This document shows positions 43,853 through 62,379 of a stretch of 64,000 bases of DNA, piece by piece; position 1 is the first letter of the stretch, and the number at the start of each line of letters is the position of its first letter. A model generated the notes under the pieces. It was not told the DNA's origin. It did not search any database and saw nothing but the letters and a program-made list of their open reading frames with translations. The stretch is from an uncultured Gammaproteobacteria bacterium (lineage in GTDB: Bacteria > Pseudomonadota > Gammaproteobacteria > Steroidobacterales > Foliamicaceae): NCBI GenBank assembly GCA_951828235.1, contig OX639965.1, positions 2,245,556 through 2,309,555 of the forward strand. The letters are read 5' to 3'. Position numbers and translations under genes: made by a program.

Positions 43853-44340
43853 GGCCAGCAGGCGTCCGTGCTGTCCTCGCCGCCGGCGCTCTCCGCCGTG
43901 CGGCGGCCGGTGGAATCCACGGCAAGAACGCGGCACCGCTCGTCACCGCCCTGAGGACCCTCCGGATCGGCCACCGCCTCTGCCCGGAAACCGCCGGCTA
44001 AACCGCCTTCAGGCGCGCGCAGCCGAAGTTCGTAATAGCCGCGCTCGGTGCCGCTCACGCCCAGGCCGGCGGGCGGCGGAACCGCCAGTTCATCCGCGCG
44101 CGCATAGCGTCCGTTCTCGAAGAAGAAGCGCTCCTGCAGGACGGCGACACGCAGCAGCGCGTCGGTGGCGTCCAGGCGCCGCGTGCGTTCGAGCTGTCCG
44201 GTCCAAAGCGGCGTGGTCGCCGCGGCCAGCAATGCGAGTATGGCCAGCGCCACCAGCAATTCCGTCAGACTGAACCCCCGCGAGCGAGGGCGTCCCCGCC
44301 CTCCAATGACACTTGCCCGAAGAATCCCGGCGATTCTCAT
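43849..44340 (-). CDS. pilE: Type IV minor pilin, PilE-like
   Basis: Prepilin motif G|FSLTELLVALAILALLAA after an unusually long 22-aa leader. ATGA overlap with the upstream pilX-like gene. Confidence 0.75.
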   Translation of the reverse strand: MRIAGILRASVIGGRGRPRSRGFSLTELLVALAILALLAAATTPLWTGQLERTRRLDATDALLRVAVLQERFFFENGRYARADELAVPPPAGLGVSGTERGYYELRLRAPEGGLAGGFRAEAVADPEGPQGGDERCRVLAVDSTGRRTAESAGGEDSTDACWP

Positions 44341-44870
44341 TCCAGACCCTCACGCCAATAGCGTCGGACCGGCGGCTGCGCAGCATCCTCCGGACAGTCG
44401 CCATCAACCTGGCAAATCTCGATTTCTTCGGGCAAGGCAGCGTCCGATTCGCCCGGCGCCAGCAACATGAAACCGACCACCACCGGTGCCCGCGCCCGGG
44501 GTCCGGCCGTTCCCAGGGAGCGCACCTCGAAATGCAGAGCGCGTTTCGGCGCGTCCGGTTCTTCAAAGCCTGGCGGGGGCGCGGTCGTTTCCACGAAACG
44601 CATGCTCCACTCCACGCATCGGGAAGCGATTCGGCAATAGCGCCCGTCTTGCGGCGCATCCAGGCGGAAGCGCCGGGCGGACAGCGCCATGCCGACTCCG
44701 GTTTCCGCCAGTCGGACCGCCTCGGCATATTCCCTTGCATTGCGGACCTGCAGCCATTGCAGCGCGGCGTCCCCGTGGCCGGCCGTAGCCAGCAGCGACA
44801 GGGCCGCGAGCACCATCAGCACCACGGCCAGCACAACGCCGCGCTCGGAATTCTCAGCCCTCCCGCGCAT
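44337..44870 (-). CDS. pilX: Type IV pilus assembly protein, PilX-like
   Basis: MRGRAENSERGVVLAVVLMVLAALSLLATAG is a PilX N-terminal-type hydrophobic segment. Start at M55 of the tracked ORF, overlapping the pilW-like end by 17 nt. Confidence 0.6.
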   Translation of the reverse strand: MRGRAENSERGVVLAVVLMVLAALSLLATAGHGDAALQWLQVRNAREYAEAVRLAETGVGMALSARRFRLDAPQDGRYCRIASRCVEWSMRFVETTAPPPGFEEPDAPKRALHFEVRSLGTAGPRARAPVVVGFMLLAPGESDAALPEEIEICQVDGDCPEDAAQPPVRRYWREGLE

Positions 44871-45780
44871 TCGCCACCATCTCGCTTCCGGCCACGAGCA
44901 GGCGGCGCCTTGAGTCGTCGAAACTTCGCACGGCGCGGTCCGCATAGGCGTAGGTCTTCGCGTCCACGTAGCCCGTTTCGGCCCTGTAGTGGCGCAGGAG
45001 CAGCCAGAAACGCACTGCCACGACACGCGCACCGGGCGCTTCCGGCGCGACCGGATCGATTACGCGGTCGGCCCGCCCGTCGCCGTCAACATCAAGCGCC
45101 AGACGAACCTGAAAGTCTTCTACGCCGGAAAGGATCTCCTCGTCGCGCAAGGATCCACCCCTGACCAGGGTCTTGCGCCGCAACGAAGGTTCCCCGGGCT
45201 CGTGACTGGAGCGGGCGGCGACATACCAGGCGTGCACCAGGAGATCGCGAATCTCGGTTTCGCCTTCCAGCGCGGGTGGCGAATTGGCGGAAAACACGAC
45301 TCCTTCGCGGCGCGACGAATGCACCTGCAATCGCCGCGAATCCACGCCCGTAGTTGCCGGGCCCGCCCGGCGGATTTCCAGCACGTCGGTTCCGGCCTGC
45401 CGCGCGTTCCGGTATGGGGGACAGGGCAGCGGCCAGGAGTCGGCGGCGGCCACGTAGCTTTCAAACCGAAAGGCCCAGTTGCCAACGTTTGTGCCGCCAC
45501 AGCGGATCGACGTCCCCGCGGCTACCCGGAGCGCCCCGGGGTCGGAACTCAGTCCCCAGAAGCCTGCCGAGCGCACGTCGGCGCGCAGCAGGTCCAGCAC
45601 GAAGCGCGCCTTTTCCTCAAGACTGTGCAGGTTGTCCGCCGCCCGGCTCGACTGGCGCAGCTGCTGCACGGCGCCGAAGACGCCCAGCAGCAACAGGCTC
45701 GAGATGGCGAGCGACACGAGGAGTTCGGCCAGACTGCTGCCCCGCTGGCCGTCCCAATGAGGTGCTATCGGCCTACCCAC
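44854..45780 (-). CDS. pilW: Type IV minor pilin, PilW-like
   Basis: QRGSSLAELLVSLAISSLLLLGVFGAV is a prepilin-like N-terminus. GTG 45780 is the nearest in-frame start and overlaps the pilV-like end by 16 nt. Confidence 0.6.
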   Translation of the reverse strand: MGRPIAPHWDGQRGSSLAELLVSLAISSLLLLGVFGAVQQLRQSSRAADNLHSLEEKARFVLDLLRADVRSAGFWGLSSDPGALRVAAGTSIRCGGTNVGNWAFRFESYVAAADSWPLPCPPYRNARQAGTDVLEIRRAGPATTGVDSRRLQVHSSRREGVVFSANSPPALEGETEIRDLLVHAWYVAARSSHEPGEPSLRRKTLVRGGSLRDEEILSGVEDFQVRLALDVDGDGRADRVIDPVAPEAPGARVVAVRFWLLLRHYRAETGYVDAKTYAYADRAVRSFDDSRRRLLVAGSEMVANAREG

Positions 45781-46151
45781 AGCACCAGCCGTGCGGTGTC
45801 GCGGGCGCCCGCGGGCCAGCGCATTTCGACCTGATATGCCGGCGGTCCGCCGCCCAGCGCCCTCACTTCGCATTGCAGACCCGGCAGGGCGGCCGAAGCC
45901 TGCCTTTGCCAGGAACGCAATTCATCGCCGCCACTTGCCGAGGGGTTCGCGGCAATACGGGCGACGAGGTCCTGCCCCATCATTTCGGCGAGGAAGTAAC
46001 TGTGCGCGGCGCGGCTCTCCTGCAGGCGCCCGGTGATCAGGGCGCCGGTGCCGAGCAGCCCCAGGCTGAAGAGCGCCAGTGCAAGCAGGCATTCGGCGAG
46101 ACTGAAGCCCCGCTCGCGCTTACCCCGGCGGGCAGGAAAGCGGGTCGCCAT
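45765..46151 (-). CDS. pilV: Type IV pilus modification protein PilV-like minor pilin
   Basis: RERG|FSLAECLLALALFSLGLLG. Start at ATG 46151 or 46169. Confidence 0.65.
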   Translation of the reverse strand: MATRFPARRGKRERGFSLAECLLALALFSLGLLGTGALITGRLQESRAAHSYFLAEMMGQDLVARIAANPSASGGDELRSWQRQASAALPGLQCEVRALGGGPPAYQVEMRWPAGARDTARLVLWVGR

Positions 46152-46644
46152 TGCTGGCCTTGGCGGCAAGTCGCGGCCTGCCGATATTGTTGATGATGAT
46201 CGCGCGCGCCGCGCCGCTTCCGCGCCGGTCGCAAACGATCAGGGTGCCGTTGGTGGAGCGCCCGCGGAACGGCCGGAACACGAACCGGGTGCGATTCGAG
46301 CGAATGGACAGACCGGCCTGGCCCCGCGATCGGTAGAGGATCGAACCCGGCGGCGGCGCGTGCGGCGCCGAAGCAATAGGGCCGTCGTGGACAATCCAAC
46401 CGGCGTCCCAATCCTCCGCGGCGCCGCAGCGCCATCCGTCCGGGCTGGAACACACAATCGTGTCCCGGCCCCTCTCGGCGGCCGTGCGGCGCGCGAAGTG
46501 CAGGCTGCGGATCAATCCGTTGATCGTCGTGCTCCGCTGCAGATTGAGCATTCCGGTCGCGATAAGGGGCTGGGTCAGGACGACTGCAATTGCGCTGACG
46601 GTCAATGCAACCAGAATTTCCAAAAGCGTAAAGCCACGCATCAT
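46120..46644 (-). CDS. fimT: GspH/FimT-family minor pilin
   Basis: MMRG|FTLLEILVALTVSAIAVVL, then INGLIRSLHFARRTAAERG (FimT/GspH-like). Start at M30 of the tracked ORF. Confidence 0.7.
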   Translation of the reverse strand: MMRGFTLLEILVALTVSAIAVVLTQPLIATGMLNLQRSTTINGLIRSLHFARRTAAERGRDTIVCSSPDGWRCGAAEDWDAGWIVHDGPIASAPHAPPPGSILYRSRGQAGLSIRSNRTRFVFRPFRGRSTNGTLIVCDRRGSGAARAIIINNIGRPRLAAKASNGDPLSCPPG

Positions 46645-46800
46645 GCGATCCCTTGCGTGCGCCGATCCCGCGGGCGCAGAGGGCAAATTACCTGCTTGCC
46701 TGACGCGGCTGAAGACAGCTATTGCACGCATTCGCCGAAAAATCCGGCAAATGGCGTTTGCGATACAATCCGGCGCTTCTGGTGCTCAAGGCACGACCCG

Positions 46801-46879: not shown

Positions 46880-47467
46880 ATGAATCTTATGCGGCTCATC
46901 ATTGGAATCTCCGGCGCCAGCGGCGTCATTTACGGCATCCGGCTGCTGCAGGCGCTGCGCGAGACTGACGGCGTGGAAACGCACCTCGTCATCAGCAATG
47001 GCGGCAAGGTCAATATCGCGCTGGAGACGGACTGGAAGGTGCGCGACGTCGAGGCGCTGGCGGATGTCGTGTATTCCGACAGCGATGTGGCGGCGACGAT
47101 TGCCAGCGGTTCCTTTCGAACCGGAGGCATGATCGTGGCGCCCTGTTCCATGAAGACGCTGGGCGCAATCGTGAATTCGTATGCGGCCAACCTGCTCGCG
47201 CGCGCGGCCGACGTAACGCTGAAGGAGGGCCGGAGGCTGGTGCTGGCGCCGCGCGAAACGCCGCTGCATGCCGGCCATCTGCGGCTGATGCACGAAGCGG
47301 CGCTGATGGGCGCGATCGTCGCCCCGCCAGTACCGGGTTTCTACGCCAAGCCGGACACGGTGGAAGACATCGTCAACCACACCGTCGGAAGGCTGATGGA
47401 CCTGTTCGGCCTGGAAACGGACCTGGTGCGCCGCTGGCCAGGCGGCAAGGCGGCAGCGAAGAACTAG
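46880..47467 (+). CDS. ubiX: Flavin prenyltransferase UbiX
   Basis: RLIIGISGASGVIYGIRLL, MIVAPCSMKTLGAI and RETPLHAGHLRLM. ATG 46880 lies only 3 nt after the tRNA, so ATG 46889 is an equally plausible start. Confidence 0.9.
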   Translation: MNLMRLIIGISGASGVIYGIRLLQALRETDGVETHLVISNGGKVNIALETDWKVRDVEALADVVYSDSDVAATIASGSFRTGGMIVAPCSMKTLGAIVNSYAANLLARAADVTLKEGRRLVLAPRETPLHAGHLRLMHEAALMGAIVAPPVPGFYAKPDTVEDIVNHTVGRLMDLFGLETDLVRRWPGGKAAAKN

Positions 47468-47946
47468 GTGGTTGGCGGGCGTCGGGCGCAGGTGGTCCAG
47501 TGGCGAATGCGCCAGTCGCCATTTATTTTTTCGGCCACCAGGGTGCCCATGCCTTCCTTGGTGCGCCTTTGCCCGTCCCTGACGGCGGAGGCGCGGAAAA
47601 CGAACACGCCGTAGGACAGATCGCCGTTTCCGAAGGCGTGCACCAGCTGCGCCTTGTATTCCATGTCCTTGAGCATGCCCAGTTCGAGGCTGAGGTGATT
47701 CTGGTCATAGTCCGCCCAGCCGTAATTGGGATAGCTGGATTCGACACTCAGGAACTCTTCATCCGTGCGCATGCAGGCCTCGACTTCGGAAAGCTCCGCC
47801 GACTCGACGCCCTTCGCGTAACGGTCAAGCAGTTCCTGCAGCTCCTTCTGGATTCCGCTCAGCGTTTCTGCGGGGCCGAGCACGGGCATGTCGGAAATGG
47901 GGCGCGTGACCCATGCCGGCATTTCTCTTCCACCTGGTGCGGCCAT
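47464..47946 (-). CDS. NTF2-fold (SnoaL/DUF4440-like) protein
   Basis: LLDRYAKGVESAELSEVEACM...GVFVFRASAVRDGQRRTKEGMGTLVAEKINGDWRIRHW follows the pattern of NTF2-like cone proteins. Weak, fold-level call. Confidence 0.45.
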   Translation of the reverse strand: MAAPGGREMPAWVTRPISDMPVLGPAETLSGIQKELQELLDRYAKGVESAELSEVEACMRTDEEFLSVESSYPNYGWADYDQNHLSLELGMLKDMEYKAQLVHAFGNGDLSYGVFVFRASAVRDGQRRTKEGMGTLVAEKINGDWRIRHWTTCARRPPTT

Positions 47947-48012: not shown

Positions 48013-48816
48013 TTGCGCGCCATGAAAGAGAGGAAGACCGCCATCGTGACCGGCTCGGCCACCGGTGTTGGCGCTGCGACGGCCGAGTTGCTGGCAGCCC
48101 GCGGCTGCAATGTCGTGGTGAATTACACCCGCAGCGAAAAGGAAGCGAAGGAGACCGCCGCTCGCTGCGAAGCGGCAGGCGCCGAAACGAGGGTGGTGCA
48201 GGCGGACGTTTCCGAAGACGCCGACTGCAAGTCCATGGCCGCCGCCGCCATGGATGCCTGGGGGCGGATCGACTACCTGGTGAACAATGCCGGGCGCACC
48301 AAGTTCAACCCCTTCGCCAATCTCCACGGCATCGAAAAGCAGGACTTCCTCGACATCTACGCGGTCAACGTGGTGGGCACCTACCAGATGATCCGCGCCG
48401 TGGAACCGCACATGCGGGCCGTCGGCAGCGGCGCCGTGGTCAACAACTCGTCGATCGGCGGCATTACGGGCATCGCGTCGTCGATCCCGTACGCCGCATC
48501 CAAGGCCGCGCTGAACCTGATGACCAAGTCGCTGGCGCATGTGCTGGGGCCTGAAATCCGCATCAACAGCGTCGCGCCCGGTTTGATCCAGACCCGCTGG
48601 CTGAAGGGCGGAATGGGCGATGAGGCGTATGAGGCCATGCTGGAAATGGCACGCGAGGGACTGCCGCTGAAGCAGGTCGCCGAGCCGCAGGATGTCGCCG
48701 AGGTCATCGTCTGGTTCCTGGAAGGCGCGCCGCTCGTCACCGGGGAGACCCTGATTGCCGACAGCGGCGTGCACCTGGGGCAGTTGCCCACGTTGGCAAC
48801 CGGCGACAAGGAATGA
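48013..48816 (+). CDS. Short-chain dehydrogenase/reductase (FabG-like)
   Basis: TAIVTGSATGVGAA (TGxxxGxG), NNAG, and catalytic YAASKAAL. Confidence 0.85.
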   Translation: MRAMKERKTAIVTGSATGVGAATAELLAARGCNVVVNYTRSEKEAKETAARCEAAGAETRVVQADVSEDADCKSMAAAAMDAWGRIDYLVNNAGRTKFNPFANLHGIEKQDFLDIYAVNVVGTYQMIRAVEPHMRAVGSGAVVNNSSIGGITGIASSIPYAASKAALNLMTKSLAHVLGPEIRINSVAPGLIQTRWLKGGMGDEAYEAMLEMAREGLPLKQVAEPQDVAEVIVWFLEGAPLVTGETLIADSGVHLGQLPTLATGDKE

Positions 48817-48847: not shown

Positions 48848-49816
48848 TTGAGTCCGGGGGCGAAAAAGAACGCCACTCTGGCGCAACTCAGGGCGCGGCT
48901 GCGGCTGCCCGCGTTCGCCGCGCCCATGTTCCTGGTCTCGGGTCCCGAACTCGTGATCGAGGCCTGCAGGGCGGGCGTTATCGGCGCGTTCCCGTCCCTT
49001 AACGCCCGTCCTCTCGAGACGCTGGAGGATTGGCTCAAGCAGATTTCGGCGACGCTGGCCGAAGCAGAGCGGGCAAACCCCGGTAGGATCGCTCCCTGGG
49101 CGGTGAACCTGATCGTGCACCGCAGCAACAAGCGGCTGGCCGAAGACCTCGACCTCACGGTGAAATACCAGGCGCCAATGGTCATCAGTTCGCTGGGCAG
49201 TCCGAAGCTGGTGCGCGAGCAGGTGCACTCCTACGGCGGCCTGCTGTATAGCGATGTCAACAGTTTGTTCTACGCACGCAAGGCCGCCGATGCGGGCGCC
49301 GACGGCCTGATCCTGGTGGCGGCCGGCGCCGGCGGGCATACGGGCATGATCACGCCGTTTGCGTTTCTGGCCGAGGTACGCAAGTTTTTCGATGGCGCCA
49401 TCGTGCTTGCCGGCGGAATCTCCTCGGGAGCGGACATAGCGGCCGCTATTGCGATGGGCGCCGATCTTGCCTATGTGGGAACACGTTTCATCGCCGCGCG
49501 TGAGAGTCTGGCTTCGGATTCGTACAAGCAGATGCTGGTGGACAGCGGGGCGGATGACCTGGTTCTGACGCCGTACTTCACGGGTGTTCCCGCAAACTAC
49601 TTGAAAAAGAGCGTCGCAAATGCAGGCATTGATCCGGAGGAATTGCGAAAGGCAAACCCTGAAATCCAGTTTGACAATGAGGAAAAGCGCTCGCGCGCCT
49701 GGCGAGACATTTGGTCGGCGGGGCAGGGAGTAGGGGCAGTGGAACGGGTGCAATCCACCGCGGAACTCGTGTCCGAACTGAAAGAAGGATACCAAAGGGC
49801 TATCGGAAGGCTTTGA
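48848..49816 (+). CDS. Nitronate monooxygenase / NPD-family FMN oxidoreductase
   Basis: LPAFAAPMFLVSGPELVIEACRAGVIGAFP, ADGLILVAAGAGGHTG and GADLAYVGTRFIA. There is no ATG upstream of the conserved N-terminus, so TTG 48848 is chosen and the start is uncertain. Confidence 0.75.
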   Translation: MSPGAKKNATLAQLRARLRLPAFAAPMFLVSGPELVIEACRAGVIGAFPSLNARPLETLEDWLKQISATLAEAERANPGRIAPWAVNLIVHRSNKRLAEDLDLTVKYQAPMVISSLGSPKLVREQVHSYGGLLYSDVNSLFYARKAADAGADGLILVAAGAGGHTGMITPFAFLAEVRKFFDGAIVLAGGISSGADIAAAIAMGADLAYVGTRFIAARESLASDSYKQMLVDSGADDLVLTPYFTGVPANYLKKSVANAGIDPEELRKANPEIQFDNEEKRSRAWRDIWSAGQGVGAVERVQSTAELVSELKEGYQRAIGRL

Positions 49817-49864: not shown

Positions 49865-51201
49865 CACTACTGTCCCAACAATATCGGTTTGAGTCTGCAT
49901 AAGGTATTGTTTTGACGAGATAAATATGGGATTTTCGAGGGGCATCGATTTGAACGCCGGGCCGTGCATGCCGGAGTCGGCCTCCCTTATTGTGGCGGTT
50001 TATCCGTTGGGGGAGGCAGGTTATGCATTCCGGACGATACGTGTTTTCGCAGCTCATGGAGCATCTACCGGCCAAGACCTTTCGCCGGTGTGTGCGTCGA
50101 TACCACGGCGACCGGCATGTCCAGTCGTTCACTTGCCTGGACCAGTTCTTGTGCCTGACGTTCGCGCAATTGACCCACCGCGAAAGCTTGCGCGACATCG
50201 AGGTTTGCTTGCGCGCGCATCGCGAGAAGCTCTATCACATGGGGATCCGCGGCGGCATGGCCCGCAACACGCTGGCCAATGCGAACCGGAAACGGGACTG
50301 GCGCATTCACGCGGACTTCGCGCAAGCCTTGATTCGCATCGCGCGCCCACTGTACGCCGAGGAGGATCTCGGGAACGCGACAACACCGTCTACGCGCTCG
50401 ATTCCTCCACCGTCGATCTGTTCTGTCCGTGTTTCCCTGGGCCTTGTTTCGCTCCACCAAGTCCGGCGTCAATCTGCGTACGCTACTGGACCTGCGCGGC
50501 AACATCCCGGCGTTCATCCAAGTGTCCAATGCCAAGTTGCACGATGTCAACGTGCTGGACCTGCTGGTGCCCGAACCCGGCGCGTTCTACATCATGGACC
50601 GAGGGTATGTGGACTTCGAACGTCTGTTTCTACTGCACCGCCTGGGCGCGTTCTTCGTCGTGCGCGCCAAGTCCAACATCCAGTTCCGGCGCCGCTACTC
50701 CGCCGCCGCGGACAAGTCCGCGGGCGTGCGCTGCGACCAAACCATCGTGCTGACCGGCATCGAGACCCGCAAGCGCTATCCTCAGCCGCTGCGCCGAGTC
50801 GGGTATTACGATGCACAATCGGACCGGCGATTCAACTTTCTTACCAACCACTTCGCCGTGCCGGCGGCAACCGTCGCCGAACTGTACCGCCATCGGTGGC
50901 AGGTGGAATTGTTCTTCAAGTGGATCAAGCACCACCTGCGCATCAAGTCCTTTTTCGGCGCCTCGGAGAATGCGGTGAAAACCCAACTCTGGAGCGCCGT
51001 CTCCGTGTATGTGCTGGTGGCCATCGTCAAGAAACGGCTCAACATCTCCGCCGACCTCTACACAATTCTGCAGATACTGAGCCTCACCCTGATCGAAAAA
51101 CTCCCATTGAATCATCTACTTGCAAAAACCCAATACATCCCAGAAAATCAGCACTCAATGAACTAACTGAATTTGTTCACATAATTGTTGGGACACTACT
51201 G
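49865..51201 (+). mobile_element. IS4-family insertion sequence (1337 bp) with an inactivated transposase
   Basis: Ends CACTACTGTCCCAACAAT (49865-49882) and ATTGTTGGGACACTACTG (51184-51201) form an 18-bp inverted repeat matching at 16/18. Flanked by the 9-bp direct repeat ATTTGGTTT. The interior encodes a DUF4372 + DDE (IS4-type) transposase. Confidence 0.8.
50023..51166 (+). pseudogene. IS4-family transposase, disrupted by two frameshifts
   Basis: N-terminal MHSGRYVFSQLMEHLPAKTFRRCVRRYHGDRHVQSFTCLDQF... in frame 1 up to ~50375. NTVYALDSSTVDLF in a second frame (~50380-50425). FPWALFRSTKSGVNL...YRHRWQVELFFKWIKHHLRIKSF (DDE C-terminal block) in a third frame to 51166. Confidence 0.8.
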
Positions 51202-51210
51202 ATTTGGTTT
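51202..51210. repeat. Right target-site duplication ATTTGGTTT
   Basis: Identical 9-mer at 49856-49864. Confidence 0.7.
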
Positions 51211-51284
51211 ATACTCGTTCCTTAAACTTTCAGTTTCTTCCAAAAAAAGACCTTACTCTGGAAGTCCTATAGGAGGGGTGTGAA

Positions 51285-54200
51285 ATGCGTAAATTCCTGG
51301 TAACTGCGCTGTTCCTGACCATGGCGCTCGGTGACGCCGCCTTCGCTCAATCGGCGCAAGATGAAGAAGAAGACGCGGAGGAAATAACACAGGAGGCACC
51401 GGGAGAGGTACCGGAGCAGGTGCCGGAAGAGGAAGCGATGGATGAAATCGTCGTGACCGGCTCCCGAATCCGGCGCGACGAGTTCACCAGCGCAGCGCCG
51501 GTCCAGATCATCGACGGCCAGGTCTCCCGCGAACTGGGCCTGATTGACACGGCGGCATTGTTGCAGAGCGCAACCCAGGCAACGGGCACCCAGATTGACA
51601 GCACCTTTACGGCCTTCGTCGTGGACAACGGCCCGGGCGCTGCTCAGATCAATCTCCGCGGGCTGGGCGTCCAGCGCGTTCTGATACTGCTCAACAGCAG
51701 GCGGGTCGCTCCGGGCGGCGTGGGCGGCGCGCCTACCTCGCCGGACATCTCGACCATACCGAACGTGATGATCGACCGGATCGAGTTACTGCTGGACGGC
51801 GCATCGTCCATCTACGGCTCGGACGCCGTGGCGGGCGTGGCCAACGTAATCATGAGAAAGGACTTCGAAGGGTTCGAATTCGAGGGCGTGTTCGAAGCGA
51901 CGGACCACCCAGGGGGTGGAGAACAGACGATGGGCCTGGCCTGGGGCAGGACCGCCGATAACTGGACGCTCGGAGTGGCCGCCGAGGTCTATGATCGTAA
52001 GCGGGTCCGATTGCGTGACCGCCCCTACACCGAGCAGTGCAACCGCCTCTTTTACGAGGATGAGAACGGCAATCCCTTGAGCAATTACCTGGGTCTGGTG
52101 CCCGGCACCACCTTGAGTCCCTGCGCGCTCAGAACCATGAACCGGGTGTTCATACCGGTCGGTTTCGGCAACGTCTGGTACACGCCGGGCACAACCAATA
52201 TCGGCATTCCCAATTTCTCGGAGACGGAAGTTCCCGTGGGATTCACCGGGTTCAACCCCGCGGCCATCGTGCCGATTGATACCGATGGCGACGGCATCCC
52301 GGACACGGGCCTGGTGGATCCGGACCGCAACGGCGTCTCGGAGATTGACCTGCAGACGGACGCCTACAACTACAACGGTTCGGACCGGGACCGCGCCGGC
52401 GACCTGCTTCCCAACTCCCGGCGTGTCAATCTGTACGCGTACGGTGAGCACGACCTGGGCAATGCGAGCAACTCGCAGGCGTACTTCGAGTTCCTGTACG
52501 CGAACCGGAAGACGGAAGTCTTCTCGCCCGGGGCCAGCATCTTCCCGGACGTTCCACCCAACAACCCCTACAATCCCTGCAACCAGTTCCAGCCCAACGG
52601 GGCCAACTGCCTTGGGTTCTTCGGCTTCAATTTCGGGAATTTCGAGGTGACTCCGATCGTCCACATTCGCGGCGACCGGGACAACAATGACGTAGAAGTC
52701 GAGCAGGTTCGCATGGTGGCGGGAATGCGCGGCGACCTTCCCGGATGGCGGAACAACTCGGGTTTCGGCAACTGGGGATACGATTTCTACTTCAGTCATT
52801 CGTCCTCGCGGGGCACCGATTTCCAGACCGGCATTCTGGAGCGGGAACTGACCCTGTCTCTGGAGACTTCGGTCATGGATCCCGCAACCGGAGAGATCAC
52901 CTGCGGCAATGGTCAGCCGTGCGTGCCGGTGAACATGTTCGCGGACTCGATCTATCAGCCGGGCGGGGGTGATTTCGCTACCCCGGAGGAGCGCGACTTT
53001 GTCTTCGGCCTGCGCAGCTTCGATACGAAAATCTACCAGTCCATATTCAGCGGCGTTCTGCAAGGTGATGTGGCGACCTTGCCCTGGAACAACACCTCTA
53101 TCCCGCTGGTGGTGGGTGTCGAATACCGGGAGGACGAGATCAACTCGATACCGAACGACGTGGCCCGCGAAGGCCTGCTGATCGCCTTCTTCCGCGACGG
53201 CGGGGCGGTGGGCAAGCGGGACATCACAGAGCTGTTCATGGAAACCGAACTGCAGTTGCTGGAGGGTGTCACCCTGGCGCAGGACCTTTCCCTGAATCTC
53301 GCGGTTCGCTGGACCGAAGAGAGCACCTACGGAAGTGATACCACCTACAGTGTCAAGAGCGTCTATTCGCCTTTCGAAGGCATTACGTTCCGCGGCACTT
53401 ACGGCACTTCGTTCCGCGCGCCGAACACGCACGAGCAGTTCCTGGCCGGAACTTCCGGCTTTGCGACCATTTTCGACCCCTGCGTAGTCCCCATCTCTGC
53501 CCGGGATGCGTCGTTGAATCCGAATGAACCGGCGACCTACAATTCGGACGAGGACCTGCGGGAGCAGGCCACGCTCGACAACTGCCGGGCGAACGGCGTG
53601 GACCCGACAACGCTGGGACTGGACGGTCTGAACACGACCTATTCCGTGGAACGATTGCGCAAGGGCGGGCAGCAGGTTCAGCTGGACATCGATCCGGAAA
53701 CCTCGACCTCCTATACCTACGGCATCGTACTGGACCAGCCGTTCTGGGACACCTTCACGCTGCGCGCCGGGGTGACCTATTACGACATCAATGTGGAGAA
53801 CACGATCAGCCAGTTGGGCACGGGCTTCATCGTTAATGACTGCTACGTGGAACAAGCGAACAACGCCAGCGCCTTTTGCCGGTTCATCAACCGGGGCGCC
53901 AATGGCCTGATCGAGCTGGTTGAAGCCAGCTTCATCAACATCAACGCCATTACGTCGCGGGGCATCGACTACAACGTGTACTTTCAGCGTGACTTCATCG
54001 TTGCCGACCGGAACCTGAATATTGACGTGGACTTCAGGGTTTCGCGCCTATTGGAGAACAACTTCATTTTCCGCGACGCCGAGGAGGACGACGCCGGCAC
54101 CCCGGTTGCGCCCGAGTGGGAAGGCACTGCCCTGCTGGTTGCGACCTACGGCAGATACCGCTTCAACTGGCGAGCGAACTATATCCACGGCGAGGAAGAC

Positions 54201-54476
54201 GACCCTGGCGATTTCTTTGTTGGAGCGCCCTGCGCCACGCTGGACGTGATGTGCCGGCCGATTGCGAGGACCGATTCATACTGGACGCATTCCGCCTCGC
54301 TGACCTGGATCCCCCGCGACTGGGAGATCACACTGGGGATAGTGAACCTGTTCGACGAAGAGCCGCCCCTGATGGATAACGGCGCGCCGGAAGTACAGTT
54401 GAACAACATTCCGCTGGGAGCGGGTTACGATCTGCTGGGGCGGCGCGTCTTCCTGTCGGTGAGAAAACAGTTCTAG
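51285..54476 (+). CDS. TonB-dependent outer-membrane receptor (1063 aa)
   Basis: AGGAGG RBS. Signal peptide MRKFLVTALFLTMALGDAAFA, acidic spacer, plug DEIVVTGSRIRR...NLRGLGVQRVLILLNSRR...LLLDGASSIYGSDAVAGVANVIM. Aromatic C-terminus LSVRKQF. Confidence 0.9.
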   Translation: MRKFLVTALFLTMALGDAAFAQSAQDEEEDAEEITQEAPGEVPEQVPEEEAMDEIVVTGSRIRRDEFTSAAPVQIIDGQVSRELGLIDTAALLQSATQATGTQIDSTFTAFVVDNGPGAAQINLRGLGVQRVLILLNSRRVAPGGVGGAPTSPDISTIPNVMIDRIELLLDGASSIYGSDAVAGVANVIMRKDFEGFEFEGVFEATDHPGGGEQTMGLAWGRTADNWTLGVAAEVYDRKRVRLRDRPYTEQCNRLFYEDENGNPLSNYLGLVPGTTLSPCALRTMNRVFIPVGFGNVWYTPGTTNIGIPNFSETEVPVGFTGFNPAAIVPIDTDGDGIPDTGLVDPDRNGVSEIDLQTDAYNYNGSDRDRAGDLLPNSRRVNLYAYGEHDLGNASNSQAYFEFLYANRKTEVFSPGASIFPDVPPNNPYNPCNQFQPNGANCLGFFGFNFGNFEVTPIVHIRGDRDNNDVEVEQVRMVAGMRGDLPGWRNNSGFGNWGYDFYFSHSSSRGTDFQTGILERELTLSLETSVMDPATGEITCGNGQPCVPVNMFADSIYQPGGGDFATPEERDFVFGLRSFDTKIYQSIFSGVLQGDVATLPWNNTSIPLVVGVEYREDEINSIPNDVAREGLLIAFFRDGGAVGKRDITELFMETELQLLEGVTLAQDLSLNLAVRWTEESTYGSDTTYSVKSVYSPFEGITFRGTYGTSFRAPNTHEQFLAGTSGFATIFDPCVVPISARDASLNPNEPATYNSDEDLREQATLDNCRANGVDPTTLGLDGLNTTYSVERLRKGGQQVQLDIDPETSTSYTYGIVLDQPFWDTFTLRAGVTYYDINVENTISQLGTGFIVNDCYVEQANNASAFCRFINRGANGLIELVEASFININAITSRGIDYNVYFQRDFIVADRNLNIDVDFRVSRLLENNFIFRDAEEDDAGTPVAPEWEGTALLVATYGRYRFNWRANYIHGEEDDPGDFFVGAPCATLDVMCRPIARTDSYWTHSASLTWIPRDWEITLGIVNLFDEEPPLMDNGAPEVQLNNIPLGAGYDLLGRRVFLSVRKQF

Positions 54477-56554: not shown

Positions 56555-57955
56555 TCAGCCCGTCGGCCAGCGCGGGTGGTGCAGGTCGATCACGTAGTCG
56601 TGCGAGTGCCGCTTGGGATCGTGGCGGTGCGGATGGCTGTGCGGTTCCTCGCCTTCGCCGCCTTCGTGGGCGTGCTGGTGATGTCGGTCGTGGAAGTGCT
56701 TGTGGGTGTGCTCCACCGCCTCGTGCTCGTGCAGGACTTCCTCGTGGTCCTCGCGTGGCCAGAGCCGGGCGCCCGCTGCCGCCAGCACGATGCAGATCAG
56801 TCCCAGGATCAGGCCTGCCGTGGAGAGTCCCAGCGTCGTTCCCAGCCATCCCGCCAGCGGATAGCCGACCAGCCAGGCGCAATGCGACAGCGAAAAGTGA
56901 GCCGAGAAGTACGCCGGCAAATCGGCCGGGCTGGAGGAGCGGTTGATTACCCGGCCCGAGGGTGTGTAGACCCAGGAGCCGCCCGCTCCCATGACCGCCC
57001 ACAGCACGAGTACCGGTATGAGTCCTGGGGACAGGATCATGAACAGGGCCGCCGAACCCGCCAGCAATGCGCCGCGTGAGATTAGCTGACGGCTCTTGAT
57101 GCGGCTCAGGATCAAGGGGGTGGTCAGGGCCGCGGCCATGGAACCGGCGCCGTAGGCCAGCATGGTCACGGCTACCAGGAATTCCGCGCCGCCCAGTTCG
57201 GTGCGCACGTAGTCGACGTTGTTCACCAGCACCGCGCCGCTGACCATGGCGGCGCCAAAATAGAGCACCAGCAGCGCCCGCAGCCTGGGCGTGGCCATGT
57301 AGGAACGCAAGCCGAAGGTCACGTCGTCCAGCACCCGCCCGGTGCGCTCCACAGGGGCGATGGCGGGAAGCCGAGTGACGATGATCAGCAGCGCCGAGAT
57401 CAGGAACGCGGCGGAATTCAGCTCGAACAGCAGCTCGAAGCCGCCTCCGGCGGCCATCAGCGTAATCGCCAGCATCATGCTGCCGACCGTTTCCAGATCG
57501 TAGGCCATACGGGTCCAGGAAAGCGCCCGGGTGTACGTGGCATTGTCGGGCAGGACGGTCGGAATGATGGCCTGGAACACTGGCTTGAACGCCGCCGACA
57601 ACCCCTGCACGGCGAAGATGAGCAGGTAGATTTGCCATTCCGTGGTGACGAAGGGCAGCAGCAATACGAGGCCCGCCCGTATGACGTCGCTCGTCACCAG
57701 GATGGACTTGCGCGATGTGCGATGCGCCAGGCCGCCGCAGATCGGCGCCAGGAAAACGTAAGCGATCATCTTGATCGACAGGGCCGTGGCCAGCACCGGC
57801 GCCGCCTGGCCGCCGGTCAGCCGGTAGGCCAGCAGCTGCAGGCCGACGGTGCTCAGGCCCGTTCCCACCAGCGCGATGACCTGGGCCGCGAACAGCCGCC
57901 GGAAAGCCGCGTAGCGGAACGGGTTGTCCTGCATGGGCAGCGCGCTCTTGTTCAT
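56555..57955 (-). CDS. MFS transporter (EntS/MFS_3-like) with a His-rich cytoplasmic tail
   Basis: FRRLFAAQVIALVGTGLSTVGL plus about 12 TM segments. The last 66 residues contain 19 His (HEEVLHEHEAVEHTHKHFHDRHHQHAHEGGEGEEPHSHPHRHDPKRHSHDYVIDLHH). The ATG overlaps the stop of the upstream acyl-CoA synthetase (ATGA). Confidence 0.8.
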   Translation of the reverse strand: MNKSALPMQDNPFRYAAFRRLFAAQVIALVGTGLSTVGLQLLAYRLTGGQAAPVLATALSIKMIAYVFLAPICGGLAHRTSRKSILVTSDVIRAGLVLLLPFVTTEWQIYLLIFAVQGLSAAFKPVFQAIIPTVLPDNATYTRALSWTRMAYDLETVGSMMLAITLMAAGGGFELLFELNSAAFLISALLIIVTRLPAIAPVERTGRVLDDVTFGLRSYMATPRLRALLVLYFGAAMVSGAVLVNNVDYVRTELGGAEFLVAVTMLAYGAGSMAAALTTPLILSRIKSRQLISRGALLAGSAALFMILSPGLIPVLVLWAVMGAGGSWVYTPSGRVINRSSSPADLPAYFSAHFSLSHCAWLVGYPLAGWLGTTLGLSTAGLILGLICIVLAAAGARLWPREDHEEVLHEHEAVEHTHKHFHDRHHQHAHEGGEGEEPHSHPHRHDPKRHSHDYVIDLHHPRWPTG

Positions 57956-59472
57956 CCCTCGGAGCCCGCATAGAGCCGGCGCAGTTCCGTTTTCTGGAGC
58001 TTGCCCTGCGGGCTGATCGGCAATTCGCTCACGATCTTCACCTGTTTGGGAATCTTATAGCGCGCCAGGTTGGCCCGGCATTGTTCCAGGACTTCCCCGG
58101 CGGTCACCCGCCTGCCCTTGCGCGGCAGGACCAGCGCCATCCCGACCTCGCCCCACTTGGAATCCGGCACGCCGATCACGCCCGCCATGCTGACCGCCGG
58201 CATCTTCACGATCACGTTCTCGATCTCGGTCGGATAGACGTTCTCGCCGCCGGAAATGAACATGTCCTTGATCCGGTCCACCATGAAAAGCGTTCCGTCC
58301 TCGTCCATGCGGGCCCCGTCGCCGGTCCGAAACCAGCTGTTGACCCGGGACGCGGCCGTGAGCTCCGGATCGCGCCAGTATCCCGGCGTTACGCCCGGAC
58401 CCCGCAGCTGAATCTCGCCCACCTCGCCGGGAGGCAGCTCCTTGCCCTGGTCGTCGCCGACCTGCAGCTCCACGTGCATCATCGGCTGGCCCGCCGAACC
58501 CAGCATCTCGCGGGCGCGGTGGGGCGGCGTCAGCGTGACGCTGAAACACTCGGTCAGCCCGTAGGACTGGGCCAGGGCCACGCCCTTCGCTTCCCAGGTT
58601 CGCAGCAGTTGCATGGATACGGGAGCGCTGCCCACGCCCAGGCAAACCAGCGTCGGAAACCTGGCGCTTTCGAATTCCGGCAGCTCGCTCATCATCAGGT
58701 AATGCGTGGGCACGCCGATGCAATGCGTAATCCCCATTTCGGCATCGACCAGGTAGCTCAGGCATTTCTCCGCGTCCCAGCGCGGCATCACATAAAGGCA
58801 TCCCCCGTAGTGGAACAGCGGTGTGCCCGCCCCGTTCAAACCGGCGGTATGAAACAGCGGGGCGTAAGTCAGGCTTACGGAATCCCGCGACATGCCGGCG
58901 TGCAATGCAGCGCACAGCACCGTGTTGTGGGTCATGCGGTAGTTGTATGCCACGCCCTTGGGCCTGCCGGTGGTCCCGGAGGTGTACAGGAGACAGTTGA
59001 GATCATCGCCGGCGAGTTCCGGCATGACCGTCTCCGAGCCGTGGCCGGCAATCAGTTTCTCGTAATCCGAATTGCTGCCGGCGCGGCGGATGAGCATCGC
59101 CCCTTGTTCCCAGCCTTCCGCCAGCGAGGCGTATTCCTCGTCGCAGAACAGCACCTTCGGCTCGCCGTGCGCGAGCAGGGCGGCAATTTCCACCGGGTGC
59201 AGCCGCCAGTTCAGCGGCACGAAGATCGCGCCCAGCTTCCAGCAGGCAAACATGAGTTCGTAGAAATCGGTGCTGTTGGCGGCGATGATGGCCACGCGGT
59301 CGCCTTTGCCCACGTCGTGCTCCGCGGCCAGACCGGTAGCAAGCCGCGCACTGCGGTCGTTGATTTGCGTGTACGTGAAGCGCCGGCCGGTTCCCAGGTC
59401 CACGCAGGCCGGCAAATCGCCGTTGTAGCGGGCGTGGTAGGCCAGCCAGTCGTAGACCCTGTCGCTGCTCAA
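57952..59472 (-). CDS. AMP-dependent acyl-CoA synthetase/ligase
   Basis: LLYTSGTTGRPKGV (AMP-binding motif), YGLTEC, WFRTGDGARMDEDG and ISGGENVYPTEIE, with C-terminal lysine PQGKLQK. Confidence 0.9.
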   Translation of the reverse strand: MSSDRVYDWLAYHARYNGDLPACVDLGTGRRFTYTQINDRSARLATGLAAEHDVGKGDRVAIIAANSTDFYELMFACWKLGAIFVPLNWRLHPVEIAALLAHGEPKVLFCDEEYASLAEGWEQGAMLIRRAGSNSDYEKLIAGHGSETVMPELAGDDLNCLLYTSGTTGRPKGVAYNYRMTHNTVLCAALHAGMSRDSVSLTYAPLFHTAGLNGAGTPLFHYGGCLYVMPRWDAEKCLSYLVDAEMGITHCIGVPTHYLMMSELPEFESARFPTLVCLGVGSAPVSMQLLRTWEAKGVALAQSYGLTECFSVTLTPPHRAREMLGSAGQPMMHVELQVGDDQGKELPPGEVGEIQLRGPGVTPGYWRDPELTAASRVNSWFRTGDGARMDEDGTLFMVDRIKDMFISGGENVYPTEIENVIVKMPAVSMAGVIGVPDSKWGEVGMALVLPRKGRRVTAGEVLEQCRANLARYKIPKQVKIVSELPISPQGKLQKTELRRLYAGSEG

Positions 59473-59571: not shown

Positions 59572-61068
59572 ATGGCATACGAGGATTTTCGGGCCTTCCT
59601 TGATCTGCTGGAGGAGCGCGGCGACTTGCGCCGCATCACGGAACCGCTGTCCGCGGCGCTGAACGAATCCGATCTGCAGCCGCTTATGGCGCTTCTGCAC
59701 AGCGGCGCCAACCGCGCCCTGATCCTGGAGAACCTGATCGGCTACAACACGCCGGACGTTCCCGTCGCATTCAATCCCTACGGCTCGCGCGAACGCACCG
59801 CGCTGTGTATCGACGAGGAGGACGTGCTCGAAGCCAAGCGCAAGCTGGCCCGCGTGCTGGCGGACCCCGCAGGCTGGCACAAGCCGGTGATGGTGGACCG
59901 TGAGAAAGCACCCTGCAAGGACGTGGTGATTCCCGAGGAAGAAGTGTCGCTGGGTAAGAACATTCCGCACGTGTGGTTCGGAAAGGAGGGGCCGGCCTAC
60001 ATCACCAACGGCATCGCGATCACAAAGGACCCGGAGACCGGCGCCCGCAACGTGGGCTGGTACCGCCATACCCAGCTCTGGAACGCCCAGCATCCGGCCG
60101 GCGGCGAGTATTCGCAGCACAACCAGGACCGCTCCCTGGCGGTCTTCGTGTACTGGAACCCGCCGATGAACCACGGCGGCCTGCACCTGGCCAAGGCCAT
60201 AGCCGCCGGCAAGACCCTGGAAATCGCGATTGCCTGCAACTGCGACCCGGCGGTGCACCTGGCGTCGGCCACCGGCCTGCCGTTCGGCCAGGACGAGTAC
60301 GACTTTGCCGGCGGTTTGCGCGGGGCGCCGGTCAAGCTGGTGAAGTGCGACACGGTGGACATCGAAGTGCCCGCCTCCGCCGAATACGTGCTGGAAGGCG
60401 AGTTCCTCCCTGGCCAGCAGGAGCAGATCGGCTGGCACTCCAATCCGCTCGGCTATTACGACAAGGTGCAGGTGTTCCCGCTGATGCAGGTCAACCACAT
60501 CACCCATCGAAGGAACCCTATCTGGCACTCCACCATGGAGATGGTGCCGCCGTTCGATCACAACTACCTGGCGTTGCTGCCGGTGGAAGGCGAAGTCTTA
60601 AGCGACCTGGGGCGCAAGATTCCCGAGGTCAAGGATGTGGTGGTAACGCCCAACATGACCTATATCGTGCAACTGAGCGTGGACGGCGCCACCAAGCCGC
60701 ACTCGGAATTCGGCAAGTACGTGCTGCACGCCGTGTGGGGCGCGGCCGGGCGTTGGGGGCGCACCGCCAAGCTGGTAATCGTGGTGGGCCCGGACGTCGA
60801 TCCGTACGATCTGAAATCGGTGGAATGGGCGATCATGACCCGGGTGCAGCCGGTCTCGGACATCATCATGAACCCCTCCGGCCAGGCCTTCGTGCTGGAT
60901 CCCTCGGCGCCGAAGTCGGCCCAGGGCGTGCCGGTGCAGTCCGAGCAGATGGGCATCGACGCCACGGTGAAGATTCCGGAACGGTTCACGGACTACCCGG
61001 AGGTCAGCCAGGCCGATCCCGCGGACGTGGCGGCGCTGGCCGAGCGGCTGGGCGACGCCGTCGACTAG
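59572..61068 (+). CDS. UbiD-family (prFMN-dependent decarboxylase-like) protein, atypical active-site motif
   Basis: Collinear with E. coli UbiD as I remember it: DFRAFLDLLEERGDLRRI, NVGWYRH, EYDFAGGLRGAPVKLVKC, VPASAEYVLEG, HITHRRNPIWHST, WAIMTRVQP, MGIDAT. GGGAGGA RBS precedes ATG 59572. Confidence 0.85.
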   Translation: MAYEDFRAFLDLLEERGDLRRITEPLSAALNESDLQPLMALLHSGANRALILENLIGYNTPDVPVAFNPYGSRERTALCIDEEDVLEAKRKLARVLADPAGWHKPVMVDREKAPCKDVVIPEEEVSLGKNIPHVWFGKEGPAYITNGIAITKDPETGARNVGWYRHTQLWNAQHPAGGEYSQHNQDRSLAVFVYWNPPMNHGGLHLAKAIAAGKTLEIAIACNCDPAVHLASATGLPFGQDEYDFAGGLRGAPVKLVKCDTVDIEVPASAEYVLEGEFLPGQQEQIGWHSNPLGYYDKVQVFPLMQVNHITHRRNPIWHSTMEMVPPFDHNYLALLPVEGEVLSDLGRKIPEVKDVVVTPNMTYIVQLSVDGATKPHSEFGKYVLHAVWGAAGRWGRTAKLVIVVGPDVDPYDLKSVEWAIMTRVQPVSDIIMNPSGQAFVLDPSAPKSAQGVPVQSEQMGIDATVKIPERFTDYPEVSQADPADVAALAERLGDAVD

Positions 61069-61086: not shown

Positions 61087-61494
61087 TTGGCGGAGCCGGT
61101 CGATCTTTCGCAGCTTCCGAGGCTGACGAGCCGCGAGGCGGTCGGCGGCGAACTGGTTTCGGTGGACGCCGACGCCGGCGCCGTCACGGCACGCTACAGG
61201 CCTCCGCCGGAATTGGCCAACCCGATCGGTTCGCTGCAGGGCGGCTTTGCGCTGGCCATTCTGGACGATGTCAGCGGCTCCACCACCTGGTTCGGCGGAG
61301 GCGGACGTCCGTTCACCACGGCGCAGATATCCGCCAATTTCCTCAAGGCCGTGCCCATGGGCGAACCACTCGTGGGTGAGGGCCGGATCGTGCACAACGG
61401 GCGCCGCCAGTGTGTGGTCGAGGCGGAGCTGAAGCGCGAGAAGGACGGCGCCGTGCTGGTCCGTGCCACGGTGATGAACGTATACCTCAAATAG
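61087..61494 (+). CDS. PaaI/hotdog-fold thioesterase
   Basis: NPIGSLQGGFALAILDDVSG and GRIVHNGRRQCVVEAEL are typical of the PaaI/4HBT-II family. TTG start. Confidence 0.75.
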   Translation: MAEPVDLSQLPRLTSREAVGGELVSVDADAGAVTARYRPPPELANPIGSLQGGFALAILDDVSGSTTWFGGGGRPFTTAQISANFLKAVPMGEPLVGEGRIVHNGRRQCVVEAELKREKDGAVLVRATVMNVYLK

Positions 61495-61518: not shown

Positions 61519-62379
61519 ATGGTGGACATGAAAAACCTCACCGCACCTGCCCAGGCGGTGCGCGCGGACGTGCGCCGGGCGCTGCGCGAAGACTTGGGCG
61601 CCGGCGACGTGTCAGCCGATTTGCTGCCCGGCGATTCTCATGCAGCGGCGGTGGTCGTGGTGCGTGAAGAGTGCGTGCTGTGCGGACGCGACTGGTTCGA
61701 GGAGGCGTTTCGCGCCTGCGACGAGCGCATCGTCGTGCGCTGGCGGGTTGCCGAGGGCGCGGTCACGGCGGCGGGCGAGTCCGTCTGCGAGCTTGAGGGA
61801 CCGGTGCGGGGACTGCTGAGCGGCGAACGGTCGGCCCTGAATTTTCTGCAGATGCTGTCGGCCGTAGCGACGCATACGCGCGCCATGGTGAAGGCGCTGG
61901 AAGGCTCTCGAGCGGTCCTCCTGGATACCCGCAAGACGCTGCCCGGTCTGCGCGCGGCGCAGAAATACGCGGTGCGCGTGGGCGGCGGAAGCAATCACCG
62001 CATGGGCCTGTACGACGCCGTATTGCTGAAGGAAAACCATATCGCAGCCGCGGGAAGTGTTCGTGCAGCGCTCAAGGCCGCCTCGGGCATCGAGGCGGCC
62101 CTCCCGATCACGGTGGAAGTGCAGGACCTCGAGGAGTTTGCCGAGGCCTTGGACGCCGGTGCACGGTGGGTAATGCTGGACAACTTCACCCTGGATCAAT
62201 TGGCTGCGGCCGTCAGCGCACGCGACCGCCGGGGGTTGGAAGTGTCATTGGAAGCTTCAGGCGGAATCGGGCCGGAAAACGTTGCCGAAGTCGCCGCCAC
62301 CGGCGTGGACCGTATCTCCTGCGGCGCCCTGACCAAAAACATCAGGGCGTGCGATTTCTCCATGCGGATCACGGCCTGA
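61519..62379 (+). CDS. nadC: Nicotinate-nucleotide diphosphorylase (quinolinate phosphoribosyltransferase)
   Basis: ERSALNFLQMLSAVAT, LLDTRKTLPGLRAAQKYAVRVGGGSNHRMGLYDAVLLKENHI and LEASGGI. Confidence 0.92.
   Translation: MVDMKNLTAPAQAVRADVRRALREDLGAGDVSADLLPGDSHAAAVVVVREECVLCGRDWFEEAFRACDERIVVRWRVAEGAVTAAGESVCELEGPVRGLLSGERSALNFLQMLSAVATHTRAMVKALEGSRAVLLDTRKTLPGLRAAQKYAVRVGGGSNHRMGLYDAVLLKENHIAAAGSVRAALKAASGIEAALPITVEVQDLEEFAEALDAGARWVMLDNFTLDQLAAAVSARDRRGLEVSLEASGGIGPENVAEVAATGVDRISCGALTKNIRACDFSMRITA

Follow-up and report, generated by a model that had tools for sequence, protein, structure and literature searches.

Can a UbiD-family protein that lacks both acidic residues of the family's catalytic motif still be an enzyme? 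The question is raised by a gene in a 64,000-nucleotide stretch of DNA from an uncultured Gammaproteobacteria bacterium (GenBank contig OX639965.1, positions 2,245,556 to 2,309,555 of the forward strand), which is referred to in its full length as the window. The gene encodes a full-length UbiD-family protein of 498 amino acids, and a preliminary description of the DNA had remarked that the usual acids cannot be recognised in its catalytic loop. The loss of both acids is a feature of an entire clade and not a product of decay. Judging from the pattern of conservation across these sequences, the UbiD-like protein probably still works, with a rebuilt active site.

Ferulic acid decarboxylase (Fdc1) is the mechanistic model of the UbiD family. 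In the Aspergillus niger enzyme, R173, E277 and E282 form a conserved ionic network; the E282Q mutant is inactive and the E277Q mutant nearly so, such that "an acidic residue at both positions is required" (PMC5818171). Maturation of the cofactor in Fdc1 needs R173 but not E282 (PMC5818171). The E(D)-R-E triad has been called "conserved in the UbiD family" (PMC8988006). The corresponding features of the window are as follows.

59572-61068 (+): the UbiD-like gene, a member of what is here named the 'IGWHSN' clade after its loop (Pfam UbiD_N, UbiD and UbiD_C; TIGR00148; AlphaFold2 (AF2) model; ratio of nonsynonymous to synonymous substitution (dN/dS) 0.09-0.12)
60421-60459 (+): the catalytic loop, translating to EQIGWHSNPLGYY, residues 284-296 of the protein (alignment to UbiD, HmfF and the clade)
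60427-60429 (+): I286, in the place of Fdc1 E277 (ungapped alignment and offset)
60436-60438 (+): H289, in the place of the canonical Phe (alignment)
60442-60444 (+): N291, in the place of Fdc1 E282 and the UbiD Asp (alignment)

Ordinary UbiD proteins carry the loop (E/D)-G-P-(F/Y)-G-(E/D)-x-x-G-Y-Y at this place. In a phmmer alignment anchored on both sides, E-G-P-Y-G-D-H-T-G-Y-Y of UbiD lies without gaps over I-G-W-H-S-N-P-L-G-Y-Y of the query, with Glu replaced by Ile286 and Glu/Asp by Asn291. The anchors are VPASAE-VLEG and GYY; the Gly of LEG and the Gly of GYY are 18 residues apart in both the query and E. coli UbiD, and the internal Gly of the loop (G287) is common to the two. The loop of HmfF, a 2,5-furandicarboxylate decarboxylase, reads EGPFGEYPRYY and falls into the same register as that of the query. 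Relative to A. niger Fdc1 (query 215 = Fdc1 206), I286, N291 and E242 would correspond to residues 277, 282 and 233 if the stretch is ungapped, these equivalences being taken from the phmmer offset and not from a residue-by-residue alignment.

Across a family-wide alignment, the 126 ordinary UbiD representatives are acidic at the first site in 95% and at the second in 98% of cases; 118 carry both acids and none lacks the two together. Among the 122 clade members, acidity is 0% at either site, and all are without both acids. The double substitution proposed in the preliminary description is borne out here with anchors on both sides and in 122 of 122 clade members. The substituted loop is itself strongly conserved, with I in 91%, G in 100%, W in 82%, H in 99%, S in 100% and N in 98% of the clade, against E/D 95%, G 96%, P 95%, F 82%, G 88% and E/D 98% in canonical representatives.

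A shift of one or two residues that would restore the motif had been named in the preliminary description as grounds for abandoning the claim. Such a shift, for example through E284, is rejected, as the spacing of the anchors equals that of UbiD and the nearby acids are not conserved: at positions 282-285 the share of clade members with an acid is only 2-52%, and at 286-296 no acid occurs. Because the neighbouring positions are not conserved as acidic, a change of register cannot rescue the motif, and the substitution stands.

The protein is a member of the UbiD superfamily, as given by its architecture, fold, conserved Arg, cofactor ligands and linkage to UbiX; what it lacks is the family's one catalytic hallmark. 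The ATG at 59572 fits as the start codon, with a GGGAGG Shine-Dalgarno sequence 7 nt upstream and agreement with the N-termini of homologues. The three domain models UbiD_N, UbiD and UbiD_C (PF20695/PF01977/PF20696) match at 33.4, 168.7 and 76.7 bits, each above its gathering score, and the general family model, TIGR00148, is passed at 267.9 bits (cut-off 244.85). The AF2 model (mean predicted local distance difference test score, pLDDT, 80.6; predicted template modelling score, pTM, 0.84) matches UbiD, HmfF, VdcC and Fdc1 in Foldseek with E values of 1e-30 to 1e-36 and a template modelling (TM) score of about 0.7, with about 0.72 for UbiD, HmfF and VdcC, and thus has the UbiD fold. The structure of HudA (PA0254), a pyrrole-2-carboxylate decarboxylase, is also matched at TM ~0.7.

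E. coli UbiD (PDB 2IDB/5M1C-E) is the best match in both sequence and structure (E=4e-50, ~31% identity, TM ~0.72-0.74). It heads a phmmer search against all PDB sequences, followed by HmfF and ShVdcC, and its alignment covers the full length, which agrees with the collinearity proposed at the outset. The two proteins share the three-domain architecture, the Asn, Arg and Glu residues of the cofactor site, the G-Y-Y segment and a UbiX partner. Unlike E. coli UbiD, the query carries I-G-W-H-S-N in place of E-G-P-Y-G-D and an insertion of ~20 residues after the Arg (about 166-204), in which Y180 and W195 are invariant in the clade.

Attempts to assign the protein to a named UbiD subfamily were unsuccessful, as the NCBIfam equivalog scores of the query and of 10 sister representatives are all far under the cut-offs. 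The UbiD equivalog NF008175 (4-hydroxy-3-polyprenylbenzoate decarboxylase) gives the query 190.7 bits against a cut-off of 788, VdcC 235 against 650, TIGR03701 (MqnL-type, SCO4490) 192 against 496, and the phenylphosphate carboxylase subunit models phenyl_P_beta and phenyl_P_alpha 89 against 469 and 78 against 565. Annotations of clade genes as 'UbiD / 3-polyprenyl-4-hydroxybenzoate decarboxylase' are almost certainly wrong.

The altered loop is widely shared. The 120 best matches from a collection of 5.8 billion proteins are 62-99% identical to the query, ~498 amino acids long and mainly from uncultured Gammaproteobacteria, and all 120 contain (I/V)-G-(W/N)-H-S-(N/S)-x-x-G-Y-Y. When 1.84 billion cluster representatives were searched with a profile, the clade came first and was followed at 495-576 bits by four sister representatives (P0121, P0123, P0124 and P0125), then by a few irregular sequences at ~300 bits and finally by the ordinary UbiDs. 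The sister loops read D-G-P-H-G-N, N-W-G-H-S-H, D-Y-K-H-A-N and D-G-P-H-A- (the last with a gap). All four have His at the canonical Phe position, equivalent to H289, and three have lost the second acid, the fourth having a gap at that position. In a simple distance tree (neighbour-joining, not maximum-likelihood) with 30 bootstraps, the clade was recovered in 30/30, clade plus sisters in 27/30 and a wider group with irregular motifs in 24/30 replicates. Since clade and sisters group together in 27 of these 30 bootstraps, the change of motif is a derived, inherited feature.

The gene is under purifying selection, with dN/dS values against its orthologues of 0.107 (locus L001), 0.086 (L017), 0.105 (L002) and 0.118 (L003). 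Sequencing error and pseudogene formation are rejected as sources of the altered loop, given that the orthologues carry the identical motif and that dN/dS is ~0.1. When one genome per species was scanned, ~42 loci with clade members emerged, all from metagenome-assembled genomes (MAGs) with labels such as Steroidobacteraceae, Acidibacter, Nevskiaceae and 'Chromatiaceae', among others; beyond these, identity falls to 33%, the level of true gammaproteobacterial UbiD. Annotated plasmids hold no relative of more than 31% identity, PDB-level searches found no solved structure inside the clade or its sister groups, and no published description of UbiD homologues without both acids was found in the open-access full-text literature.

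Some genomes carry two clade members in differing neighbourhoods: P0046 and P0100 lie on one chromosome of 3,573,947 bp, P0042 and P0115 on one contig of 149,277 bp, and the genes of loci L012 and L016 in one MAG. Paralogues in different neighbourhoods point to diversification in accessory metabolism and not to a single housekeeping role.

Several residues around the active site have been kept, and others are new to the clade.

60049-60066 (+): N160...R165 (NVGWYR), the metal/phosphate-ligand Asn and the conserved Arg of the E-R-E network, both kept
60295-60297 (+): E242, equivalent to the metal ligand E233 of Fdc1 by the same -9 offset as I286/E277, kept
60460-60462 (+): D297 (GYYD), a clade-invariant acid (alignment)
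60559-60561 (+): H330, a histidine specific to the clade and its sisters (aligned to the His of REH in HmfF)

The Arg segment reads RNVGWYRH in the query and QNLGIYRQ in UbiD. R165, equivalent to R173 of Fdc1, and N160 do not vary within the clade, and 90-96% of canonical representatives share them (96% for the R165 column), in keeping with the conserved Arg of the preliminary description. E242 is likewise invariant in the clade and found in 88% of canonical representatives. Of the ligands of the metal and of the phosphate of the prenylated flavin mononucleotide (prFMN) cofactor in Fdc1 (N168, H191, E233), the Asn and Glu are therefore matched in canonical columns by N160 and E242; H205 falls in a mostly-His column that would hold the H191 ligand, in a part of the alignment that is less certain owing to the insertion nearby. 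In comparison with A. niger and S. cerevisiae Fdc1, the protein thus resembles them in fold (Foldseek E ~1e-30), in the Arg and, by the inferred offset, in the Glu ligand, but the residues required in Fdc1, E277 and E282 (PMC5818171), are Ile286 and Asn291.

H330 is invariant in the clade and in the four sister representatives, and a His occupies this column in 7% of canonical representatives. The aligned residue of HmfF (PDB 6H6V), His296/297, sets furan specificity and is equivalent to N318 of HudA, which hydrogen-bonds the ligand beside prFMN (PMC7976604). On account of this equivalence, H330 is very probably located in the active site, and its likeness to the HmfF His and HudA N318 suggests a polar or heteroatom-bearing substrate. 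Unlike the query, HmfF and HudA both keep the E...E pair (EGPFGE in HmfF; E278 in HudA). The D297 column is Asp in 100% of the clade and acidic in 6% of canonical UbiDs. P292 (60445-60447) occupies the position after the lost second acid, which is small in the clade (S/P/V/T) and usually aromatic in ordinary UbiDs; the aromatic residue at this position in HudA, Y279, follows the catalytic Glu and touches the ligand (PMC7976604). N223 (60238-60240) lies in a column that is Gln or Asn in the clade, where ordinary representatives have 100% Gly.

One member of the sister groups departs further. In P0124 (L089, 4310-5824), the columns of the cofactor-site Asn, Arg, His and Glu read H, L, I and K, and the second acid is also gone. 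Given these substitutions, P0124 is a candidate for a genuine pseudoenzyme, or else a binding protein, inside this branch.

Deep branches of the family can be catalytically active. Xanthine-8-carboxylate decarboxylase, XCDC (Cupriavidus sp. LA-1, LA1_0150), has been described as a "distantly related" UbiD (PMC12391406), and is an example of such a branch with an active heteroaromatic-acid decarboxylase.

The genomic context adds a link to the cofactor. UbiX is the enzyme that makes prFMN. Neighbours were counted wherever a clade locus had 3 kb or more of upstream sequence, which was so at 33 loci, and a ubiX gene was found within 7 kb of the UbiD-like gene in 16 of them. The commonest partner, present at 28 of the 33 loci, is a gene for a short-chain dehydrogenase/reductase (SDR), mostly divergent and 137-390 bp away; the SDR of the window is 70-88% identical to those of the clade loci.

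Taken together, the findings are most economically read as those of a prFMN enzyme that still works but has relocated its proton transfer, because the Arg, the ligands and the UbiX link are kept, the acids are replaced by an equally constrained motif, and histidines have been gained in the active site. UbiX would supply prFMN to the UbiD-like protein, where N160 and E242 would bind the prFMN phosphate and metal, and R165 would bind the carboxylate or CO2. The site would be lined by new polar residues, namely H289-S290-N291 of the catalytic loop together with H330, which occupies the substrate-recognition position, and possibly D297. Either H289 or H330 may take over the proton transfer performed by E282 in Fdc1, possibly with the assistance of D297. 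The enzyme may reversibly decarboxylate an organic acid taken up by the cell, probably one that is (hetero)aromatic or alpha,beta-unsaturated, and the conserved SDR would act alongside. We give about an even chance to this reading as a whole, that is, to an active enzyme that depends on prFMN, belongs to a UbiD subfamily of its own and has rebuilt acid-base machinery, in which histidine would transfer protons during (de)carboxylation of an organic acid. The first suggestion of the preliminary description, a different mechanism or substrate, has gained in weight through the near-invariant IGWHSN loop, the clade-specific active-site histidines, the retained cofactor ligands and the linkage to UbiX.

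Four points weigh against this reading. The canonical mechanism cannot run as such, given the results for E282Q and E277Q in Fdc1 (PMC5818171). The occurrence of paralogues within single genomes means that the clade is not functionally uniform, and the neighbourhoods differ between subclades. Lastly, residues 292-294 of the AF2 model, just past the motif, have pLDDT values below 50.

The genes of the window around the UbiD-like gene are, in order:

40599-43373 (+): ileS
43370-43852 (+): lspA
43849-46731 (-): type IV minor pilin operon (ComP/PilE-like, PilW, GspH/FimU-like)
46880-47467 (+): UbiX flavin prenyltransferase (Pfam Flavoprotein; NF004685 at 271 bits against a cut-off of 188)
47464-47946 (-): ORF of 160 amino acids between UbiX and SDR, no Pfam or NCBIfam match
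48013-48816 (+): SDR (Pfam adh_short)
48878-49816 (+): NMO/FabK-like flavin mononucleotide (FMN) oxidoreductase (Pfam NMO; conserved in L001, L002, L003, L017 and L019)
49990-51225 (+): DUF4372/IS4-like transposase
51285-54476 (+): TonB-dependent receptor, 1063 amino acids
54534-56519 (+): S9 peptidase
56555-57955 (-): major facilitator superfamily (MFS) transporter (Pfam MFS_1; conserved in L001, L002, L003 and L017)
57952-59472 (-): acyl-coenzyme A (CoA) ligase, AMP-binding, divergent from the UbiD-like gene (Pfam AMP-binding)
61087-61494 (+): hotdog-fold 4HBT thioesterase, directly downstream of the UbiD-like gene (Pfam 4HBT, TIGR00369)
61519-62379 (+): nadC

The syntenic locus L001 (OY762933.1) encodes a UbiD-like protein 98% identical to that of the window. 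In L003, a span of 5 kb holds the same flanks, and the transposase, receptor and peptidase are absent. As these flanks are contiguous in L003, 49990-56519 appears to be an insertion in the lineage of the window, which probably parts the UbiX-SDR-NMO genes from the UbiD-like gene. The slot at 47464-47946 holds a PNPOx-like protein in other clade loci, and a minus-strand ORF of 160 amino acids stands there in L003 and L017; the product of the window's ORF looks NTF2/SnoaL-like in sequence.

Gene calls made independently for L086 (CP054183.1) give the order FUR, UbiX, PNPOx, SDR (minus strand), UbiD-like, ApbA, Aconitase, Aconitase_C, PEP_mutase/ICL and then phosphonate genes. The UbiD-like protein of L086 is 65% identical to that of the window. 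A minor pilin operon (PilY1, PilX, PilW, GspH-like) followed by UbiX is common to the window and L086 (1-6259); ileS-lspA would lie beyond the L086 stretch examined. The conservation of this order at 65% identity points to a module at a stable chromosomal location, of which the lineage of the window looks like a rearranged version with transposase, receptor and peptidase inserted.

Other neighbours at the 33 loci are a PNPOx-like protein of ~160 amino acids (13), a LeuC-like subunit of the aconitase family (9), a protein of the isocitrate lyase (ICL)/phosphoenolpyruvate (PEP) mutase family (8), an SGL-like protein (8), a flavin adenine dinucleotide (FAD) monooxygenase (6) and an AMP-ligase of any kind (5). 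In one subclade, downstream of the UbiD-like gene in L086 (10557-19497) and also in L019, L021, L031 and L036, there are genes for an ApbA-like reductase, LeuC/LeuD-like dehydratase subunits and an ICL/PEP-mutase-family protein. Further along the L086 stretch are a PhyH dioxygenase, a PEP mutase-nucleotidyltransferase fusion and a thiamine pyrophosphate (TPP) enzyme resembling phosphonopyruvate decarboxylase, so that the block is a phosphonate biosynthesis module adjoining a possible substituted-maleate/malate pathway.

The PNPOx-like split-barrel protein directly follows UbiX in L006-L009, L011, L014, L019, L024, L032, L033, L036, L038, L039, L086 (7579-8073) and L085 (1120-1638), and is also encoded upstream of the sister gene P0123. 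By analogy with PhdC or LpdD, it could speculatively be a prFMN maturase or chaperone; a search against the PDB gave no sequence match to PhdC, and the best matches were general stress protein 26 and Rv2991, relatives among the split-barrel flavoproteins. The sister gene P0121 is accompanied by a FAD monooxygenase, an MFS transporter, an S58 peptidase and a TonB receptor, P0123 by the PNPOx protein and a molybdopterin oxidoreductase, and P0124 follows a tripartite ATP-independent periplasmic (TRAP) DctPQM carboxylate transporter. Genes for organic-acid transporters (MFS, TRAP, TonB receptor) and for aromatic-type oxygenases abound around the clade and its sisters.

The ligase and thioesterase on either side of the UbiD-like gene raise the possibility of a CoA-thioester substrate. 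Phthaloyl-CoA decarboxylase (Pcd; PDB 8OZ5/8PMK) belongs to the UbiD family and has as its substrate a CoA thioester supplied by a neighbouring ligase or transferase, and in the window, too, a ligase gene adjoins the UbiD-family gene. By this account, the ligase would activate an acid, the UbiD-like protein would decarboxylate or otherwise transform the acyl-CoA, and the thioesterase would release the product, with the altered motif reflecting the different substrate. The ligase gene is divergent, 100 bp upstream, and the thioesterase gene begins 19 bp downstream. Orthologues of both are limited to L001, L002 and L017, and both are gone in L003, where an MFS gene is directly divergent from the UbiD-like gene and nadC lies directly downstream; the pattern corresponds to two separate indels flanking one gene. 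Such joint gain or loss on both sides of the gene suggests a functional unit, and distant AMP-ligase homologues also occur near clade members in L012 and L018. However, the L003 protein is 90% identical to that of the window and has the identical motif without either gene, and a ligase of any kind is found at only 5 of the 33 loci while the motif is clade-wide. The ligase itself belongs to a generic acyl-CoA synthetase family, under all equivalog cut-offs. The protein has only a weak likeness to Pcd (E=5e-15; the best-aligned stretch, 236-283, covers 48 residues), which ranks under UbiD, HmfF, VdcC, AroY and Fdc1. Of the CoA thioester named as an example in the preliminary description, what stands is the presence of a ligase and thioesterase at four loci, and what does not is their generality in the clade or any closer kinship to Pcd than to other UbiDs. 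A CoA-thioester substrate is accordingly judged unlikely.

A second alternative, which is also improbable, is that the protein performs prFMN chemistry other than (de)carboxylation, such as isomerisation, cycloaddition/elimination or a redox reaction, for which no Glu would be needed as acid-base. Such chemistry would be consistent with the loss of both residues that are indispensable in Fdc1 alongside retention of the cofactor ligands, with the tight pairing with the SDR, and with the PNPOx-like flavoprotein at many loci. Set against it are the invariance of R165, the Arg that binds carboxylate or CO2, and the carboxylate transporters in the neighbourhoods. In addition, we know of no UbiD that is not a decarboxylase, and none turned up in literature searches.

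Complete loss of catalysis, with the protein serving as a pseudoenzyme, a prFMN carrier or chaperone, or a regulatory subunit, would fit the absence of both catalytic acids, and the additional loss of the cofactor-site Asn, Arg, His and Glu in the sister P0124 indicates that this branch can drift towards a non-catalytic state. Conservation would likewise be expected of a dedicated carrier. Yet the substituted motif is invariant, as are several of the new polar residues, the Arg and the metal ligands have been kept, dN/dS is ~0.1, and no locus has a second, canonical UbiD gene within +/-8 kb that the protein could assist. With UbiX nearby and a single UbiD-like gene per locus, the preliminary suggestion that the protein may be non-catalytic now appears distinctly unlikely.

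The remaining alternative, a divergent housekeeping 4-hydroxy-3-polyprenylbenzoate decarboxylase of ubiquinone synthesis, is highly improbable: the gammaproteobacterial hosts should make ubiquinone, and UbiX and the housekeeping genes ileS, lspA and nadC are close by, but the UbiD equivalog score is far from its cut-off, identity to gammaproteobacterial UbiD is 33%, two paralogues occur in single genomes or contigs, the neighbourhoods are variable and catabolic-looking, and a conserved substrate gives no reason for a new catalytic motif.

The interest of a functional, rebuilt UbiD-like enzyme extends beyond this locus. Rather tentatively, and with more doubt than confidence, a whole branch of the UbiD family may have abandoned the Glu-Arg-Glu/Asp network for a histidine-based prFMN site (H289/N291, H330, D297), representing either a new solution to (de)carboxylation or the first non-decarboxylative prFMN reaction, with the SDR as a partner in most members and, in many, a PNPOx-like protein that may mature or deliver the cofactor. 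In every mechanistic model of UbiD and Fdc enzymes known to us, proton transfer is assigned to the second acid and the network is the hallmark of the family. A strongly conserved, UbiX-linked natural clade without both acids is a direct test of whether that network is necessary. The clade could reveal an alternative acid-base arrangement for the engineering of (de)carboxylases, or a new prFMN chemistry.

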